7,763 bases of DNA from Delftia acidovorans NBRC 14950 (GTDB lineage Bacteria > Pseudomonadota > Gammaproteobacteria > Burkholderiales > Burkholderiaceae_C): NCBI RefSeq assembly GCF_001598795.1, contig NZ_BCZP01000052.1, positions 1 to 7,763 of the forward strand, written 5' to 3'. Shown piece after piece: positions 4,854 through 7,763 of the stretch. The translations under genes were made by a program, and so were the position numbers. The notes under the pieces are model-generated. The model searched no databases and was not told where the DNA came from. It worked only from the letters and a program-made list of their open reading frames with translations. Each line of letters opens with the position of its first letter. Positions within the stretch are counted from its first letter, which is position 1.

Positions 4854-5276
4854 TCAACGCGGCGAGGCATCGGGGCCTGCATCACTCCAGCGTGCGGCCT
4901 CTTCAAGCAGATGATCTGCCGCCTCCAGAGAAGCTGCCTGCAGTTCTGGATCGTCTTCCATACGCTGCAGCACCTGGTCCACAAGGGCCGGGAACTGCGG
5001 ATCAGCCTGCAGTGCGTCACCCAGTTCACGCACCAGCGTGGCTTCCATGAACATGCGAAAGGCCTTGCGCCGCCTGTCGGGATCTGCGGCATCCATGCCC
5101 TTCAGACGCCGCAGCAAAGGTGCCAGCACGCGGGCGTCGCCCGAGCCCTCCTTCGCAGGGCCACCGGCAGAACGGGCCTGCTCCCCCTGACCTTGCGCCT
5201 GCCGCAGCCGCGCCTGTTCCAGAGCCTGGGCCCGGATCAGCGCGGCAATGCCTGAGGCGCCATCAATGCGAGTCAT
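4854..5276 (-). CDS. Hypothetical 140-aa soluble, predicted all-helical protein with an acidic C-terminal half
   Basis: Track ORF. The ATG at 5276 lies 12 nt after the TPR gene stop, with GAAGG 7 nt upstream, so the two genes look like an operon. There is no TM segment and no signal peptide. The central Gly/Ala/Gln-rich linker is QAQGQGEQARSAGGPAKEGSGD. The C-terminal segment KAFRMFMEATLVRELGDALQADPQFPALVDQVLQRMEDDPELQ looks like amphipathic helices. GC3 is about 66% by hand count. I recognise no family. Confidence 0.6.
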   Translation of the reverse strand: MTRIDGASGIAALIRAQALEQARLRQAQGQGEQARSAGGPAKEGSGDARVLAPLLRRLKGMDAADPDRRRKAFRMFMEATLVRELGDALQADPQFPALVDQVLQRMEDDPELQAASLEAADHLLEEAARWSDAGPDASPR

Positions 5277-5288
5277 GCGGGACCTTCA

Positions 5289-5852
5289 TCAATGCGCCGG
5301 CCCCGACTGCTGGTAGTTGGAGAGCAGTACATGGGCCACACCGTCGTCCGCAGGCGGGGCAGATGTCTCGGGCGAAGGCATCGCCGCCAGCACTCTCTGT
5401 ATATCTGCCGACATCGCGGGATTGTCCGTGTTGCGCTCCAGGCCAGCCACAAACAATGGCCGAGCCCCATCGAAATCATCGCGCGCCAGCGCCACGAACC
5501 CCTGTACCCAATGGGGCAACGGGCTGCTGTCGGGCAACTCGGCAAGTGGCTGCCACGTCAGCAGCGCGGCAGGCACGCGACCATCGCTGAACTGCAGCAG
5601 CCCCAGCTGGTAACGCGCCACATGCCATTGCGGACTCAGCAGCAGTGCCGTGGAAATGTGATGTTCCGCACGGCCAATGTCACCCAAGGCAGCGAATTCG
5701 GAACCCAGCAAGAAATGCGCGGCGCCCGAATCGGGCTGCTCGGCAATTGCCTGCAGGAACAGCTCGGTGGCGACCGTGCTGTCTCCCTGGGCGCTGGCCT
5801 CGAGAGCCTGGTCCAGGGTGGAGAGAGAAGAAAGATTGTCTGATTGGGACAT
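5289..5852 (-). CDS. Tetratricopeptide-repeat (TPR) protein, 187 aa
   Basis: Track ORF. It has three to four TPR-like units of about 34 aa. Examples are ATELFLQAIAEQPDSGAAHFLLGSEFAALGDIGRAEHHISTALLLSPQ and WHVARYQLGLLQFSDGRVPAALLTWQPLAEL, followed by HWVQGFVALARDDFDGARPLFVAGLERN. There is no signal peptide and no TM segment. GC3 is about 72% by hand count. No SD precedes the only available start at 5852. Confidence 0.7.
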   Translation of the reverse strand: MSQSDNLSSLSTLDQALEASAQGDSTVATELFLQAIAEQPDSGAAHFLLGSEFAALGDIGRAEHHISTALLLSPQWHVARYQLGLLQFSDGRVPAALLTWQPLAELPDSSPLPHWVQGFVALARDDFDGARPLFVAGLERNTDNPAMSADIQRVLAAMPSPETSAPPADDGVAHVLLSNYQQSGPAH

Positions 5853-6161
5853 ATGGGAGCACCAGGGAGTGCCAGGGATTGGCGGCAGAACGACTTGGAA
5901 TGGACGGCTGTTGAGCCCTTCACCCCTTTATCCACTCCTGCGGACATCCGTTGAGCAAACCCGGCCAGTTCGCAGGGATTCTATCGCCCGGTCTTTTGCC
6001 GTCTTGACACCCTTTCGTCGCCGAAATCCCCATCAAACCAAAGGGTCTTACTCAACAAACCGAACAAGGTCCGGATGCATTGCCTGAATGGGCCCCGAAA
6101 CCTGCGGAATCCTCCGCCTCCTTTCTCGCGGCCCTCCATGCATATCGATCAAGGGGCACAC
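5853..6161. promoter_or_regulatory. Divergent control region between the TPR operon and the RHS gene
   Basis: This 309-bp non-coding gap contains several repeats. A 10-bp tandem repeat, aCCAGGGAgt/gCCAGGGAtt, lies at 5861-5880. CAGGGATT recurs at 5973-5980. GTTGAGC occurs at 5910-5916 and 5950-5956. A consensus TTGACA lies at 6004-6009, and a small hairpin gcgga-atcc-tccgc lies at 6104-6117. The RHS SD, AAGGGG, is at 6151-6156. Confidence 0.4.
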
Positions 6162-7763
6162 ATGGTTGGCATCGTCAGCGGCAATAGTCTGGGTCTGGGC
6201 AACAGCTCTCTGGCCACACTGGGTCAACGCGCCGCACAGGGCAACGCCTCCCAGGGGCGCGGTGGCGAGCAGGTCTTCGTCAACGTCGCCTCCGGCAACC
6301 TCGTCATCGCCCACAACGACGACCAGCTCGTGGCCCACGGCGGCGGCTTCCAGGCCGTGCGCACCTACAACAGCCAGGGCCTGCTCAATGACGACAACGC
6401 AGACAACTGGAGCGCGGGCTTCTACCGCCGCCAGCTGGTGCTCTCGGGCACTTACGGCCAGGCGGGCAGCACCATCACCCGCACCGAGCGCGATGGCGCA
6501 AGCGCCCTGTTCTCCTGGGATGCGGCCTCCAGCAGCTATGTCAGCACCGATGGCGCCGGTGCCTACGACCGCATCGTGCAGCAAGGCTCCAGCTACGTCT
6601 TCACCGATGGCGCCACCGGCAACCGCGAGTTCCACGACACCGCCACCGGCCGCCTGGACAAATCCGTGGACGCCAGCGGCAACACCACGGCCTACACCTA
6701 CGACGCCAACGGCAACATCGCCAAACTGGTCAACCCCAGCGGCGAGTCCATCCAGTACGACTACACGGGCAACCTGCTGACCCGCATCCGGGTGGTCGAC
6801 AGCCAGGGCGCCACCACCACGCGCACCAGCTATGCCTATGACACGCGCAACCGCCTGTCCCAGGTCACGGTCGATCTCACGCCCCAGGACGGCTCCACGG
6901 CCGACGGCAAGCTCTACCGCACCAGCTACACCTACCATGGCGACAGCAACCGCATCGCCACGCTGACCCAGAGCGACGGCAGCCAGCTGAGCATCGACTA
7001 TGTGCAGGTGGGTTCGGAGTTCAAGGTGTCGTCGCTGCGCGACGCGCTGGGCCAGACCACGCGCTTTGCCTACGACACGGCCACGCGCACCACCCAGGTC
7101 ACGGACCCTGCCGGCAAGGTCTCCAGCTACGCCTATGACGCCAAGGGCCAGTTGCTGAGCATCACCTCGCCCGCCACCAATGGTGTCTCTTCCGTCCAGC
7201 GCTTCGAGTACAACGCCAACGGCGACCTGATCCGCAGCACCGATGCGGACGGGCGCACGGTCTTCATGGCCTATGACGCCAACGGCAACCAGGTGCTGCA
7301 GCGCGATGGTGCAGGCAACACCATCACGCGCATCTACAACGCCCAGAACCGCCTGCTCAGCGAGACCGTCTACACCCAGCCCGACCCCGATGGCGACGGC
7401 GCAGCCCAGGCCTCGGGCGCGCAGACCACGCGCTATGTGTACGACGATGCCACGGGCCTGCAGCTGCGCTTTGCCATCAGCGCCGAAGGCCGCGTCACCG
7501 AATACCGGCGCAATGCCTATGGCGAGGTCGTCAGCACGCTGCAGCACCAGGCGGCGCGCTACGGAGCCGCCGGTGCCTCGACCGAGGCCGCCCTGTCGGC
7601 ATGGAGCGGGCAGCAGAACCTGCAGCAGCTGCAGCGCACCGACTACGTGCTGGACTTCCGGGGCCAGGCCCAGGTCACCACCACCTATGCCGCCACCGAT
7701 GCCGCAGGCAACGGGCTGGCGGCCGGCAGCACGGTCACGCGCCATATCTACGACCAGGCCGGG
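6162..7763 (+). CDS. RHS / YD-repeat protein, N-terminal 534 codons (3' end lies beyond the window)
   Basis: This gene is not in the ORF track because it is open-ended. I translated it by hand from ATG 6162 (SD AAGGGG at 6151-6156, 5-nt spacer) and found no stop through 7763; GC3 is about 89%. The protein begins MVGIVSGNSLGLGNSSLATLGQRAAQGNASQGRGGEQVFVNVASGNLVIAHNDDQLVAHGGGFQAVRTYNSQG. It then contains many YD-repeat units: YTYDANGNIAKL, QYDYTGNLLTRI, YAYDTRNRLSQV, YTYHGDSNRIATL, FAYDTATRTTQVTDPAGKVSSYAYDAKGQLLSI, FEYNANGDLIRSTDADGRTVFMAYDANGNQVLQRDGAGNTITRIYNAQNRLLSE and YVYDDATGLQLRF. Confidence 0.9.
   Translation, partial: MVGIVSGNSLGLGNSSLATLGQRAAQGNASQGRGGEQVFVNVASGNLVIAHNDDQLVAHGGGFQAVRTYNSQGLLNDDNADNWSAGFYRRQLVLSGTYGQAGSTITRTERDGASALFSWDAASSSYVSTDGAGAYDRIVQQGSSYVFTDGATGNREFHDTATGRLDKSVDASGNTTAYTYDANGNIAKLVNPSGESIQYDYTGNLLTRIRVVDSQGATTTRTSYAYDTRNRLSQVTVDLTPQDGSTADGKLYRTSYTYHGDSNRIATLTQSDGSQLSIDYVQVGSEFKVSSLRDALGQTTRFAYDTATRTTQVTDPAGKVSSYAYDAKGQLLSITSPATNGVSSVQRFEYNANGDLIRSTDADGRTVFMAYDANGNQVLQRDGAGNTITRIYNAQNRLLSETVYTQPDPDGDGAAQASGAQTTRYVYDDATGLQLRFAISAEGRVTEYRRNAYGEVVSTLQHQAARYGAAGASTEAALSAWSGQQNLQQLQRTDYVLDFRGQAQVTTTYAATDAAGNGLAAGSTVTRHIYDQAG

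Follow-up and report, generated by a model that had tools for sequence, protein, structure and literature searches.

In type III systems regulation and chaperoning are often combined, as in IpgC, SicA, FliT, and FlgN, and the TPR chaperones of injectisomes often double as regulators. The late flgMN operon of Salmonella encodes the anti-sigma factor FlgM together with the chaperone FlgN, and the consensus of sigma-28 promoters is TAAA-N15-GCCGATAA. Flagellar type III systems can also export non-flagellar proteins, such as Cia and FlaC in Campylobacter, YplA in Yersinia, and those secreted by the FT3SS of Lysobacter enzymogenes. The latter system operates in a non-flagellated organism, according to work cited in a passage of PMC11762177. 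The routes known for RHS toxins are T6SS, Tc, or Sec (PMC3482391).

The locus considered here belongs to a window of 7,763 nucleotides (the whole stretch of DNA that was analysed) from Delftia acidovorans, in which a giant RHS gene and two small neighbours form a conserved, co-regulated unit. The gene layout given in an earlier note on this DNA is correct: on the minus strand are the ORF of a 140-aa protein, p140 (4854-5276), and the gene of a 187-aa TPR protein, TPR190 (5289-5852), followed by a divergent control region of 309 bp (5853-6161) and, on the plus strand, by the 5' part of an RHS/YD-repeat toxin gene (6162-7763), which starts with the ATG at 6162 and runs off the window after 534 codons. 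The TPR and 140-aa genes look like one operon, of which p140 is the second gene, because only 12 nt separate them. The 140-aa gene directly adjoins a tRNA-Gln gene with anticodon TTG (4718-4794, minus strand; ARAGORN, and Rfam tRNA with 61.6 bits), which the earlier note leaves out and which is likely an island boundary; between the tRNA and an epimerase gene there is a hairpin (4678-4710; inverted repeat of 14 nt, 93% complementary) with T runs on both strands, terminator-like in both directions, which looks like a bidirectional terminator marking the housekeeping side of the unit. The GC content drops from about 0.70 to 0.57-0.64 across 4600-6200, and GC3 is 0.66 and 0.71 in the pair of small genes, 0.895 in the RHS gene, and 0.83-0.89 in the housekeeping genes.

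The conservation of the unit was followed in 80 Burkholderiales loci collected by means of the TPR protein alone, with about 10 kb viewed per side. A leader-bearing RHS gene is recognised by HMM in 45 of the 80 loci and, in at least 39, is divergent and adjacent to the TPR gene at a distance of 45-630 bp; some kind of RHS sequence occurs in 52 loci, and none is found within 10 kb in 28. The p140 homologue directly follows the TPR gene in 53/80 loci and is undetected in about 22/80, and in 14 loci without a detected p140 the TPR gene still stands beside RHS. The trio is spread over Paracidovorax, Acidovorax, Variovorax, Ramlibacter, Roseateles, Rhizobacter, Ralstonia, Cupriavidus, and Delftia; it is mostly divergent, with the orders TPR>p140>RHS in locus L090 and RHS>...TPR>p140 in L092, and is kept despite a changed flank, a TonB receptor locus, in L085. 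The idea that the three genes are one unit is therefore supported by a linkage that survives new flanks and gene orders. The codon-usage mismatch, previously regarded as a caveat on co-inheritance, is real in the window, but the caveat dissolves because the GC3 of the RHS gene exceeds that of the TPR gene in 43/45 loci and the pair matches the GC3 of flagellar-type genes. Some loci have the pair but no RHS gene next to it, and the pair sometimes stands in line with the sigma factor gene or with fliQ/fliR/flhA; it is thus as much a component of the apparatus as an accessory of RHS.

The pair had been described as the only partners of the RHS gene, a view corrected by the related loci, whose conserved neighbours outside the window are a flagellar-type export cluster and a FliA/WhiG-like sigma factor, together with a TPR protein of about 400 aa. 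At least two of these neighbours lie beside the pair in 37/80 loci, and either RHS or flagellar-type genes are present in 42 of the 47 loci that extend for 9 kb or more on each side; flagellar-type genes are missing within 10 kb of the trio, or of the TPR-RHS pair, in 23 loci. The neighbours include gate, ATPase, and C-ring genes (FliP, FliO, FliQ, FliR, FlhA, FlhB, FliH, FliI, FliN, and FliM-like), with Pfam matches to FliP, Bac_export_1, Bac_export_3, FHIPEP, Bac_export_2, FliH, T3SS_ATPase_C, and FliMN_C, as well as rod, hook, and P-ring genes (FlgD, FlgE, FlgF/G-like rod proteins, FlgA, and FlgI) and a FliG-like protein of 231 aa with no recognisable C-terminal domain. Flagellar NCBIfam models outscore the Sct models, for example for FliP and FlhA, most scores being below the equivalog cut-offs. 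Flagellin, FliD, FlgK/L, and Mot genes are not seen in the 10-kb flanks, beyond which the clusters extend, and T6SS, TPS, or Tc partners are not among the gene families common to at least five loci; the cluster could be a flagellar locus of the ordinary kind, albeit a divergent one. In the Delftia contig L091, whose TPR protein is 99.5% identical, the p140, TPR, and RHS (5015 aa) genes come in this order and are followed by a 134-aa ORF and then by the gene of the TPR protein of about 400 aa (HMM, 398 bits), where the locus ends, before the position of any sigma or fli gene. The match of this larger TPR protein to TIGR02552 is weak (24.7 bits; the cut-off is 104.8).

The RHS and TPR genes are both preceded by the bipartite motif GCTAAAC-N16-GGATGTAyTG, which is found upstream of RHS in 29/44 loci with an invariant start-to-start spacing of 24 nt. 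A PWM trained on the RHS-side sites only recovers an equivalent site for the TPR gene as well, no more than 300 nt upstream of it, in 43-52 of 79 loci; at the setting that gives 43/79, nine sites occur elsewhere in 1.34 Mb and none in shuffled sequence. The motif is not found upstream of structural flagellar-type genes. In the window, the site directed toward the RHS gene (6047-6087, plus strand; CTCAAC-N16-CGGATGCATTG) scores 31.5, its downstream element starting 88 nt before the ATG, and the site toward the TPR/p140 operon (5919-5959, minus strand; GCTCAAC-N16-TGGATAAAG) is weaker, with a score of 13.0, a threshold at which shuffled loci (1.34 Mb) give two matches. The earlier note described the control region as shared and repeat-bearing: the same promoter-like motif faces both the operon and the RHS gene, and a direct repeat is indeed present, though short, GGACGGCTGTTGAGC (5902-5916) versus GGACATCCGTTGAGC (5942-5956), 80% alike. 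The reverse complement of its core GTTGAGC gives the -35-like element GCTCAAC. A search of 5853-6161 for sigma-70-like sites gave none. Written as TAAA-N16-(C/G)GAT(G)TA, the motif lies close to the sigma-28 consensus, and the factor reading it is presumably the FliA-like one of the cluster.

The RHS part in the window matches RHS_repeat (E=2e-30, six stretches) and YD_repeat_2x (E=1.2e-23), with a weak match to DUF6531 at residues 40-72; full-length alleles, from contigs with an identical TPR gene and from L091 (5015 aa) and L087 (6030 aa), measure 4934-6030 aa and contain TEN_YD-shell. The protein had been considered a leader-only product devoid of its own trafficking element, a description that does not hold: the first 37 residues or so (MVGIVSGNSLGLGNSSLATLGQRAAQGNASQGRGGEQ, encoded at 6162-6272, plus strand) are strongly conserved and family-specific (MVAIVSGNSLGLxLxSLATLGQ), beginning at Met1 in every case in an alignment of 45 loci. 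This Gly-, Ser-, and Leu-rich segment has no acidic residue in the first 35 positions and no Sec features, and is proposed to be a signal for export and chaperone binding. A search of 1.84 billion representative proteins with the leader gave 14 matches, all N-terminal, and the six that were tested all carry RHS repeats, DUF6531, or both. The C-termini differ among L091, L087, L090, and L092; L091 and L090 have a pre-toxin stretch in common, after which they diverge. A Col/Pyo DNase domain (E=4.9e-28) is recognised in L090, and Ntox15 is weakly matched in L092. The 134-aa ORF after the Delftia RHS gene in L091 is a putative immunity gene. In four full-length relatives a pattern search found no PxxxxDPxGL near the C-terminus, the pattern DPxG[LWF] being present only within mid-protein repeats. 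As the earlier note had observed, known adaptors and partners are missing from the three products, which give no Pfam or NCBIfam match at E<=1 to PAAR, VgrG, Hcp, DUF1795, DUF4123, DUF2169, or TPS.

TPR190 represents a distinct conserved family (141 homologues), in which RYQLGLLQ is invariant and the C-terminal tail reads H..Y..H. Matches to TPR_16, TPR_2, and TPR_19 exceed the cut-offs, and its AF2 model (pLDDT 87.8) comprises nine TPR-type helices followed by the conserved tail, modelled with low confidence. Fold and sequence comparisons return generic TPR proteins only; class II chaperones are found neither among the 50 best matches by fold nor among the 60 best by PDB sequence, and the LcrH/SycD model TIGR02552 does not match the 187-aa protein at E<=1. 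TPR190 is proposed as the export chaperone of the RHS leader. The 140-aa protein belongs to an orphan family: that of the window matches no Pfam or NCBIfam family, and the 34 p140 members match no Pfam family, with FliS, FliT, FlgN, and FlgM giving nothing at E<=1 in any of them; in the PDB, p140 has no fold match with E below 1 and no sequence match. Its AF2 model (pLDDT 70) shows an N-terminal helix (6-28), a disordered segment (30-46), and helices from 46 to 129, so that the earlier label of small acidic helical protein is right as to the helices and less so as to the charge, p140 being mildly acidic (pI 5.07) and TPR190 more strongly so (pI 4.44). The proposed role of p140 is that of a co-chaperone or an FlgM-like regulator. 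The accessory module appears to be undescribed, as was previously supposed, since the small proteins fit no known adaptor or chaperone family and the literature searched contains no description of this RHS/TPR/p140 unit.

The trio probably forms the late regulon in a type III export system of Burkholderiales that is divergent and derived from the flagellum. The FliA-like sigma factor encoded by the cluster would transcribe the RHS gene and the TPR/p140 operon from the two divergent sigma-28-like promoters; the giant RHS protein would be the exported cargo, with the conserved N-terminus of about 37 residues, without acidic residues, as export signal. TPR190 would act as a cytosolic chaperone that holds the extended leader in its TPR groove and delivers the toxin to the FlhA/FlhB gate, and p140, in a complex with TPR190, would be either a co-chaperone or an FlgM-like secreted anti-sigma factor or gatekeeper coupling RHS expression to the completion of the apparatus. 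The sequences show the linkage of the three genes and its conservation, their association with flagellar-type export genes, the common motif, and the conserved leader; the use of the motif by the FliA-like factor, the binding between the parts, and the passage of RHS through the flagellar-type apparatus are inferred. The linkage kept through rearrangements and new flanks, the flagellar-type neighbours, the gene order in L091, the motif common to the RHS and TPR genes, the leader found on RHS proteins only, the lack of T6SS, TPS, or Tc partners among the families common to at least five loci, and the codon usage of the pair, which groups with that of the flagellar-type genes, count in favour of the late regulon. 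The weak TPR-side site of the window, the absence of RHS within 10 kb in 28/80 loci and the lack of a detected p140 in about 22/80 count against it, as do the failure of both small proteins to match a known chaperone or anti-sigma family, the Delftia locus that ends after the gene of the larger TPR protein, and the chance that the cluster is an ordinary flagellar locus. The size of the cargo also counts against it, as the type III passage of an RHS protein of 5000-6000 aa would demand an unfolded state; if exported in this way, it would be, to our knowledge, by far the largest type III substrate.

An unlikely alternative is that the pair is purely regulatory and controls the FliA-like sigma factor, as anti-sigma factor plus antagonist or by partner switching, timing RHS synthesis without touching the RHS protein. 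Like flgM, the pair has its own sigma-28-like promoter, and in L009, L011, L020, and L025 it shares the strand of fliP and the sigma gene and comes directly after them, in the manner of a sigma/anti-sigma operon; the 28 loci in which RHS is not adjacent and the architecture of p140, a disordered linker with a helical C-terminal domain, agree with such a function. However, the 34 p140 members match neither FlgM nor an anti-sigma family, and the TPR gene stays beside RHS through several rearrangements, even in the 14 loci with no detected p140. This alternative overlaps with the late regulon, because type III chaperones often also regulate.

It is improbable that RHS shares no more than its regulation with a second, ordinary flagellum and leaves the cell otherwise (by a T6SS encoded elsewhere, by lysis, or in vesicles), the pair being an RHS-specific stabiliser or adaptor, as the earlier note proposed. 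None of PAAR, VgrG, Hcp, DUF1795, DUF4123, DUF2169, or TPS is present in the products or conserved neighbours and the leader lacks Sec features, which speaks against the established routes of RHS toxins, otherwise a point in favour; moreover, the near restriction of the motif to RHS and the pair, leaving out the structural flagellar-type genes, is expected for a late cargo class, and the codon usage of the pair is that of the flagellar-type genes. Such an exit would better suit the size of RHS, the 23 loci devoid of flagellar-type genes within 10 kb, and the TonB receptor flank of L085. Very improbable, finally, is an RHS protein that is not released but sits at the distal end of the hook where a filament would be, with the leader acting like the N-terminal segment of an axial protein and the pair as assembly chaperones: the cluster has hook and hook cap (FlgE, FlgD), P ring (FlgI), and the short FliG-like protein with no filament or Mot gene in the available stretches, and to the eye the leader looks like the N-termini of axial proteins (S-G-L ... 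T-x-L-x-x-L-G), but it gives no Pfam match to Flg_bb_rod at E<=1, the lack of filament genes covers only 10 kb per side, and the C-terminus is polymorphic and toxin-like instead of a conserved axial-type segment.

The late-regulon reading suggests an undescribed export route for RHS toxins. In its broader form, which is advanced tentatively, these Burkholderiales may possess a dedicated flagellum-derived nanomachine, possibly non-rotating, whose late cargo is the giant RHS toxin. The cargo would be recognised by means of its leader of 37 residues and of a chaperone-regulator pair of its own, TPR/p140, and the sigma-28-like factor of the machine itself would switch it on. If true, polymorphic toxins would have a new secretion route, and the flagellum a new evolutionary offshoot that parallels the injectisome.

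Among the known systems, the RHS effectors of T6SS share with the trio the polymorphic C-terminus, the immunity-like downstream ORF, and the small adjacent accessory genes, proposed here as loaders. In contrast, the trio lacks PAAR and other trafficking domains of T6SS, matches no adaptor family, and has no T6SS gene among its conserved neighbours; its RHS N-terminus is the 37-residue leader, and the canonical PxxxxDPxGL was not found by pattern search. The injectisome TPR chaperones (LcrH/SycD, IpgC, PcrH; YscG-YscE/PscG-PscE; YscY-YscX) are likewise small all-TPR proteins encoded beside a presumed substrate and type III export genes and, in YscG-YscE/PscG-PscE and YscY-YscX, the TPR protein is paired with a small helical protein; unlike class II chaperones, TPR190 does not match the LcrH/SycD model at E<=1, the apparatus is flagellar-type (FlgD/E/I, with FliP and FlhA favouring flagellar over Sct models), and the presumed substrate is an RHS toxin. 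As proposed for RHS, Cia/FlaC, YplA, and the Lysobacter FT3SS employ a flagellar-type apparatus for proteins foreign to the flagellum; these are small proteins, none of them RHS, using a motility-type apparatus without a dedicated leader family, TPR/p140 genes, or promoter class. With late sigma-28 operons (flagellin and FliS, flgMN) the trio has in common a FliA-type sigma gene within the export cluster, a bipartite promoter of TAAA...GAT(A/G) type before the cargo gene and before a two-gene operon of small helical proteins, and, as proposed for the RHS leader, an N-terminal, uncleaved, acidic-poor signal. The differences are a cargo that is a toxin of 5000-6000 aa and not an axial protein, a -10-like element GGATGTAyTG in place of GCCGATAA, and a pair unrelated in sequence or fold to FliS, FlgN, FliT, and FlgM; the closest parallel to this pair is the flgMN late operon of Salmonella.

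The window carries, on the minus strand, a 140-aa ORF, p140 (4854–5276), and, 12 nt upstream of it, the gene of a 187-aa TPR protein, TPR190 (5289–5852), separated by a 309-bp gap (5853–6161) from an RHS gene on the plus strand, which starts with the ATG at 6162 and runs off the window end after 534 codons. This anatomy, on which the earlier note had based the idea of a single functional unit, was confirmed by ORF listing, translation, and family scans. The RHS fragment has, besides RHS repeats, a weak match to DUF6531 (residues 40–72), preceded by ~37 residues with no known domain (Pfam/NCBIfam); the T6SS and TPS partner domains stated to be absent were indeed not found in the three products by the same family scans, nor were Tc domains. 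A tRNA-Gln(TTG) gene (4718–4794, minus strand) directly adjoins p140, with a bidirectional terminator hairpin (4678–4710) beside them, and the GC content falls across 4600–6200. An antisense 114-aa ORF (4911–5255, plus strand) overlaps p140, and in the public contig L001 (10598–10942) the gene caller picked this ORF over the conserved p140, which is therefore probably under-annotated in databases.

TPR190 belongs to a distinct family of ~190 aa, with 141 homologues at E ≤ 0.001, characterized by an invariant RYQLGLLQ and by a conserved C-terminal tail with the consensus HVLLSNYQQQG..H; its AF2 model (pLDDT 87.8) consists of nine TPR-type helices followed by the tail, conserved and modelled with low confidence. 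Its assignment to the class II type III chaperones was rejected, as fold and sequence searches gave only generic TPR proteins (OGT, consensus TPR, and MamA). The p140 of the window is 95–96% identical to proteins of Delftia tsuruhatensis and D. acidovorans; the window protein and 34 members of its family gave only scattered chance matches in Pfam and NCBIfam, a profile search against PDB sequences had no match below E = 0.25, and Foldseek on the AF2 model found no PDB fold with E below 1. This model is of moderate quality (pLDDT 70) and comprises an N-terminal helix and a helical domain bearing the motif DDPxRxRKAFRxFLE, both conserved, joined by a linker that is disordered and variable. The two proteins are outside every known chaperone, adaptor, or anti-sigma family, and the claim that the pair has no known adaptor family is borne out, TPR190 matching generic TPR models only (Pfam/NCBIfam) and p140 nothing usable.

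The linkage of the three genes was followed in 80 loci, collected by a scan with the TPR190 family in one genome per species and belonging to Burkholderiales except for a few oddly labelled metagenome bins; since neither RHS nor p140 was used in choosing these loci, their presence is an independent test. A p140 homologue is found in 56/80 loci by tblastn and in 58/80 by HMM, and in 53/80 it immediately follows the TPR gene in the same orientation. An RHS gene beginning with the leader of the window, that is, its first ~37 residues, is present in 45/80 loci (HMM), 39 of the 80 having it divergent from the TPR gene at 45–630 bp, and any RHS sequence in 52/80; in several Variovorax loci the RHS gene is upstream of the pair in the same direction, with its start outside the DNA covered. 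The trio also persists when its surroundings change: in L085, a close relative (TPR 76% and RHS 76–83% identical), it is flanked by a TonB-receptor/FecR/ECF-sigma locus and not by tRNA-Gln, in L090 the order is TPR, p140, and RHS on a single strand, and in L092 the RHS gene comes first and the TPR gene and p140 follow at a distance. A functional unit would be expected to behave in this way, and the conserved linkage that the earlier note had proposed as a check was thus found, rearrangements included. The trio looks mobile because the tRNA-Gln/hairpin flank of the window is replaced by a different one in L085, with tRNA-Gln as a possible insertion boundary.

Some loci have particular neighbours. 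An IS66 Orf2 (TnpB) gene at 19947–20291 of L092, between the RHS 3' end and the pair, suggests IS-mediated rearrangement of the unit. In L013 (3801–8000), L032, L036, and L047 the TPR gene is followed by genes for a metallophosphoesterase, an unknown 240-aa protein, two ExbD, and an ExbB/MotA-family protein, a set that replaces p140 and the flagellar-type genes described below. In nine loci, mostly of Ramlibacter and also of Roseateles (including L043, L052, L054, L059, L065, and L074), groES-groEL directly adjoins the pair; two of these loci, L043 and L052, have the leader-bearing RHS gene on the side of the pair away from groES-groEL.

The earlier note had taken the RHS protein to lack a trafficking element of its own, and this part of it falls: 45 RHS starts align from Met1 in a conserved, family-specific leader (consensus MVAIVSGn.LGL.l.Sl.atLGq.G..G.a..Gr.Ge..yVN.atGNLV, the final part being the beginning of the DUF6531/RHS body). 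Gly accounts for 23% of residues 1–35 and Leu and Ser for 13% each; acidic and basic residues are almost lacking and there is no hydrophobic core of Sec type, and on this composition Sec, Tat, and lipoprotein signals were rejected. The first 37 RHS residues of the window, searched as a single sequence against 1.84 billion representative proteins, gave 14 matches at E ≤ 0.001, all N-terminal, a number that shows position and RHS context and not family size; the proteins examined (6/6) carry RHS repeats, DUF6531, or both. Type III export signals are known for their composition and N-terminal position, and in both respects the leader would fit such a signal. Its identification as the N-terminus of a flagellar axial protein was discarded, the likeness being by eye only, with no Flg_bb_rod match in Pfam.

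The RHS proteins are very large: those encoded beside an identical TPR protein in two genomes have 4934–6001 aa, and complete alleles in metagenome contigs have 5015 aa (L091, 4283–19330) and 6030 aa (L087, 1337–19429), a further giant allele being in L090 (4787–19825). A homologue search with the RHS N-terminus returned short fragments only and no full-length Delftia protein. The giant alleles (4934–6030 aa) differ by a block of ~1000 aa; those of L091 and L090 have in common a pre-toxin stretch up to SRMAQLGG and diverge after it, and the C-terminus is a Col/Pyo DNase domain in L090 and without known domain in Delftia. The PxxxxDPxGL motif was not found near the C-terminus of any giant allele read. 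In L025 (6278–7480) a 400-aa protein with the leader, a DUF6531-like start, and a few RHS repeats, possibly a shortened cargo or a remnant, is encoded between a ~400-aa TPR gene and fliP.

When all predicted proteins of the loci were clustered and identified with Pfam/NCBIfam, the families common to most loci after RHS, TPR190, and p140 were flagellar-type export genes. They include the export gate (FliP, FliO, FliQ, FliR, FlhB, and FlhA), the ATPase complex (FliH and a FliI-type ATPase), C-ring components (FliN and a FliM-like protein), axial parts (hook FlgE, hook cap FlgD, and two FlgF/G-like rod proteins), the P-ring proteins FlgA and FlgI, a FliA/WhiG-like sigma factor, and a ~400-aa TPR protein. 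In the typical order (L005, L068) TPR190 and p140 are divergent from RHS and are followed, on the RHS strand, by the ~400-aa TPR, sigma, FliP, FliN, FliM-like, FlgE, and FlgD genes and, further on, by FliI and FliH; in L078 fliQ-fliR-flhA and rod genes come directly after the pair, and in L011 and L020 the pair is downstream of fliP and the sigma gene, in the same orientation. By HMM, the sigma factor, FliP, and FlgE occur in 33/80 loci, the ~400-aa TPR protein in 42/80, and at least two flagellar-type genes in 37/80, many of the remaining loci being short contigs; with at least 9 kb on both sides, RHS or flagellar-type genes are present in 42/47. The cluster could be the ordinary flagellar locus of the cell; its proteins score higher against flagellar than injectisome models and yet mostly under the NCBI equivalog cut-offs (FliI 531 bits against 619, FlhA 757 against 772, FlgE 207 against 400, FlgD 94 against 129, and FliA/WhiG 87 against 190), and it is for this reason regarded as a divergent flagellar-type system. 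Its FliG-like protein (L011, 341–1036) has 231 aa with a weak FliG_N match only and no recognisable middle or C-terminal (torque) domain, and the apparatus may not be a rotating one.

In Delftia the locus ends, on the side of the pair, at tRNA-Gln and housekeeping genes, and the 3' side of the 15–18 kb RHS gene was reached by a metagenome scan with an internal RHS segment, which gave contig L091. This contig is clearly Delftia (TPR 99.5% identical, flanking genes 93–98% identical to the locus L003) and contains in order p140, TPR, RHS, a 134-aa ORF of no known family, likely an immunity gene, and, on the opposite strand, a ~400-aa TPR gene of the cluster family (398 bits, E = 3e-119), inside which the sequence stops. 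By this order, the Delftia RHS gene has the pair on one side and the first cluster gene on the other, and the remainder of the cluster is probably present beyond it.

Two AT-rich blocks, GCTAAACAA and GATGTAyTG, recur in the 250 nt upstream of the RHS starts; in 29/44 loci the two begin exactly 24 nt apart. A position matrix built from the RHS-side sites alone was run over both strands of the 80 loci (1.34 Mb) and at threshold 18 gave 100 matches against 0 in shuffled sequence. The motif faces RHS in 48 loci and, on the other strand, lies within 300 nt upstream of the TPR gene in 43/79 (52/79 at threshold 12), an independent result, since the TPR-side sites were absent from the training; only nine matches (threshold 18) occur elsewhere, and none was found in these loci upstream of structural flagellar-type genes. 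Extra copies, which may mark further regulon members, precede two unknown genes, of 290 aa and 340 aa, located between the RHS and TPR genes of the Variovorax loci L022 (4955, plus strand) and L031 (5100, plus strand); in other Variovorax loci (L015, L018, L019, L029, and L045, ~9870, minus strand) a copy is directed away from the TPR gene, with no gene called there.

In the gap of the window, where no sigma-70-type promoters and no riboswitch or other known RNA were found, the RHS-facing site (6047–6087, plus strand, CTCAAC...CGGATGCATTG, score 31.5) has its downstream element beginning 88 nt before the RHS ATG, and the TPR-facing site (5959–5919, minus strand) reads GCTCAAC...TGGATAAAG with a score of 13. 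The repeat noticed earlier is real (GTTGAGC at 5910–5916 and 5950–5956) but is not a regulatory repeat of its own, being the reverse complement of the -35-like element in two heptamer copies, one with a matching -10-like partner. The sigma-28 (FliA) consensus is TAAA-N15-GCCGATAA, and the motif, written as TAAA-N16-(C/G)GAT(G)TA, is a variant of it, in keeping with the FliA-like sigma factor that the cluster encodes, the presumed reader of the motif.

Codon usage ties the pair to the flagellar-type apparatus, the median GC3 being 0.76 and 0.73 for the pair, 0.69–0.80 for the sigma factor, FliP, FliI, and FlgE, and 0.85 for RHS. The mismatch between pair and RHS gene, held before to weaken co-inheritance, is real in the window but is a family-wide property, the RHS GC3 exceeding that of the TPR gene in 43/45 loci, and so is no argument against a common history. 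On the genomic evidence, the trio is rather probably the late regulon of a flagellum-derived export system, in which RHS would be the exported cargo, recognised through its leader, TPR190 its chaperone, and p140 a partner that would either hold the cargo too or couple expression to the state of the apparatus. This route is proposed because leader, two accessory proteins, promoter class, and linked sigma factor occur together; against it, there is no precedent for a type III substrate of 5000–6000 aa, and in Delftia the cluster is seen only as far as the ~400-aa TPR gene. A pair that is purely regulatory, with its own copy of the motif and without contact with the cargo, is a doubtful alternative; it is more unlikely still that the motif reflects co-regulation only and that RHS is exported by another route, and an RHS protein mounted on the hook, FlgE being among the cluster proteins, and not released is highly improbable.

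Known routes of RHS toxins are T6SS, Tc complexes, and Sec, and for many RHS proteins in which no trafficking domain is recognisable no route is known; export by a flagellar-type type III apparatus is a candidate that is concrete and testable. If true, it would add to the injectisome a second case in which flagellar export machinery was turned to weapon delivery, and it would raise the size limit of type III substrates several-fold. A link of RHS to a flagellar-type system was not found in the literature searched, which included a comprehensive survey of polymorphic-toxin trafficking modes (PMC3482391) and left subscription journals mostly outside. The nearest report, as cited in PMC11762177, concerns antifungal factors that non-flagellated Lysobacter exports through its flagellar type III system, and in that citation neither RHS nor accessory genes of the TPR190/p140 type are involved. 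Set against this literature, novelty lies in the class of cargo, its leader, the two accessory families, and the variant form of the promoter. The leader, RYQLGLLQ with HVLLSNYQQ for the TPR family, and GCTAAAC-N16-GGATGTAyTG can serve as annotation handles for genes that are currently all labelled 'hypothetical' or 'TPR repeat protein'. The logic of type III substrate, chaperone, and sigma-28 late class would be familiar. The products of the flagellar late operon flgMN, an anti-sigma factor and a chaperone, both depend on sigma-28; in YscG-YscE and YscY-YscX an injectisome TPR chaperone has a small helical partner; and class II TPR chaperones bind an extended N-terminal substrate peptide and also regulate transcription. 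By arrangement, all of these are among the systems closest to the TPR190/p140 pair.
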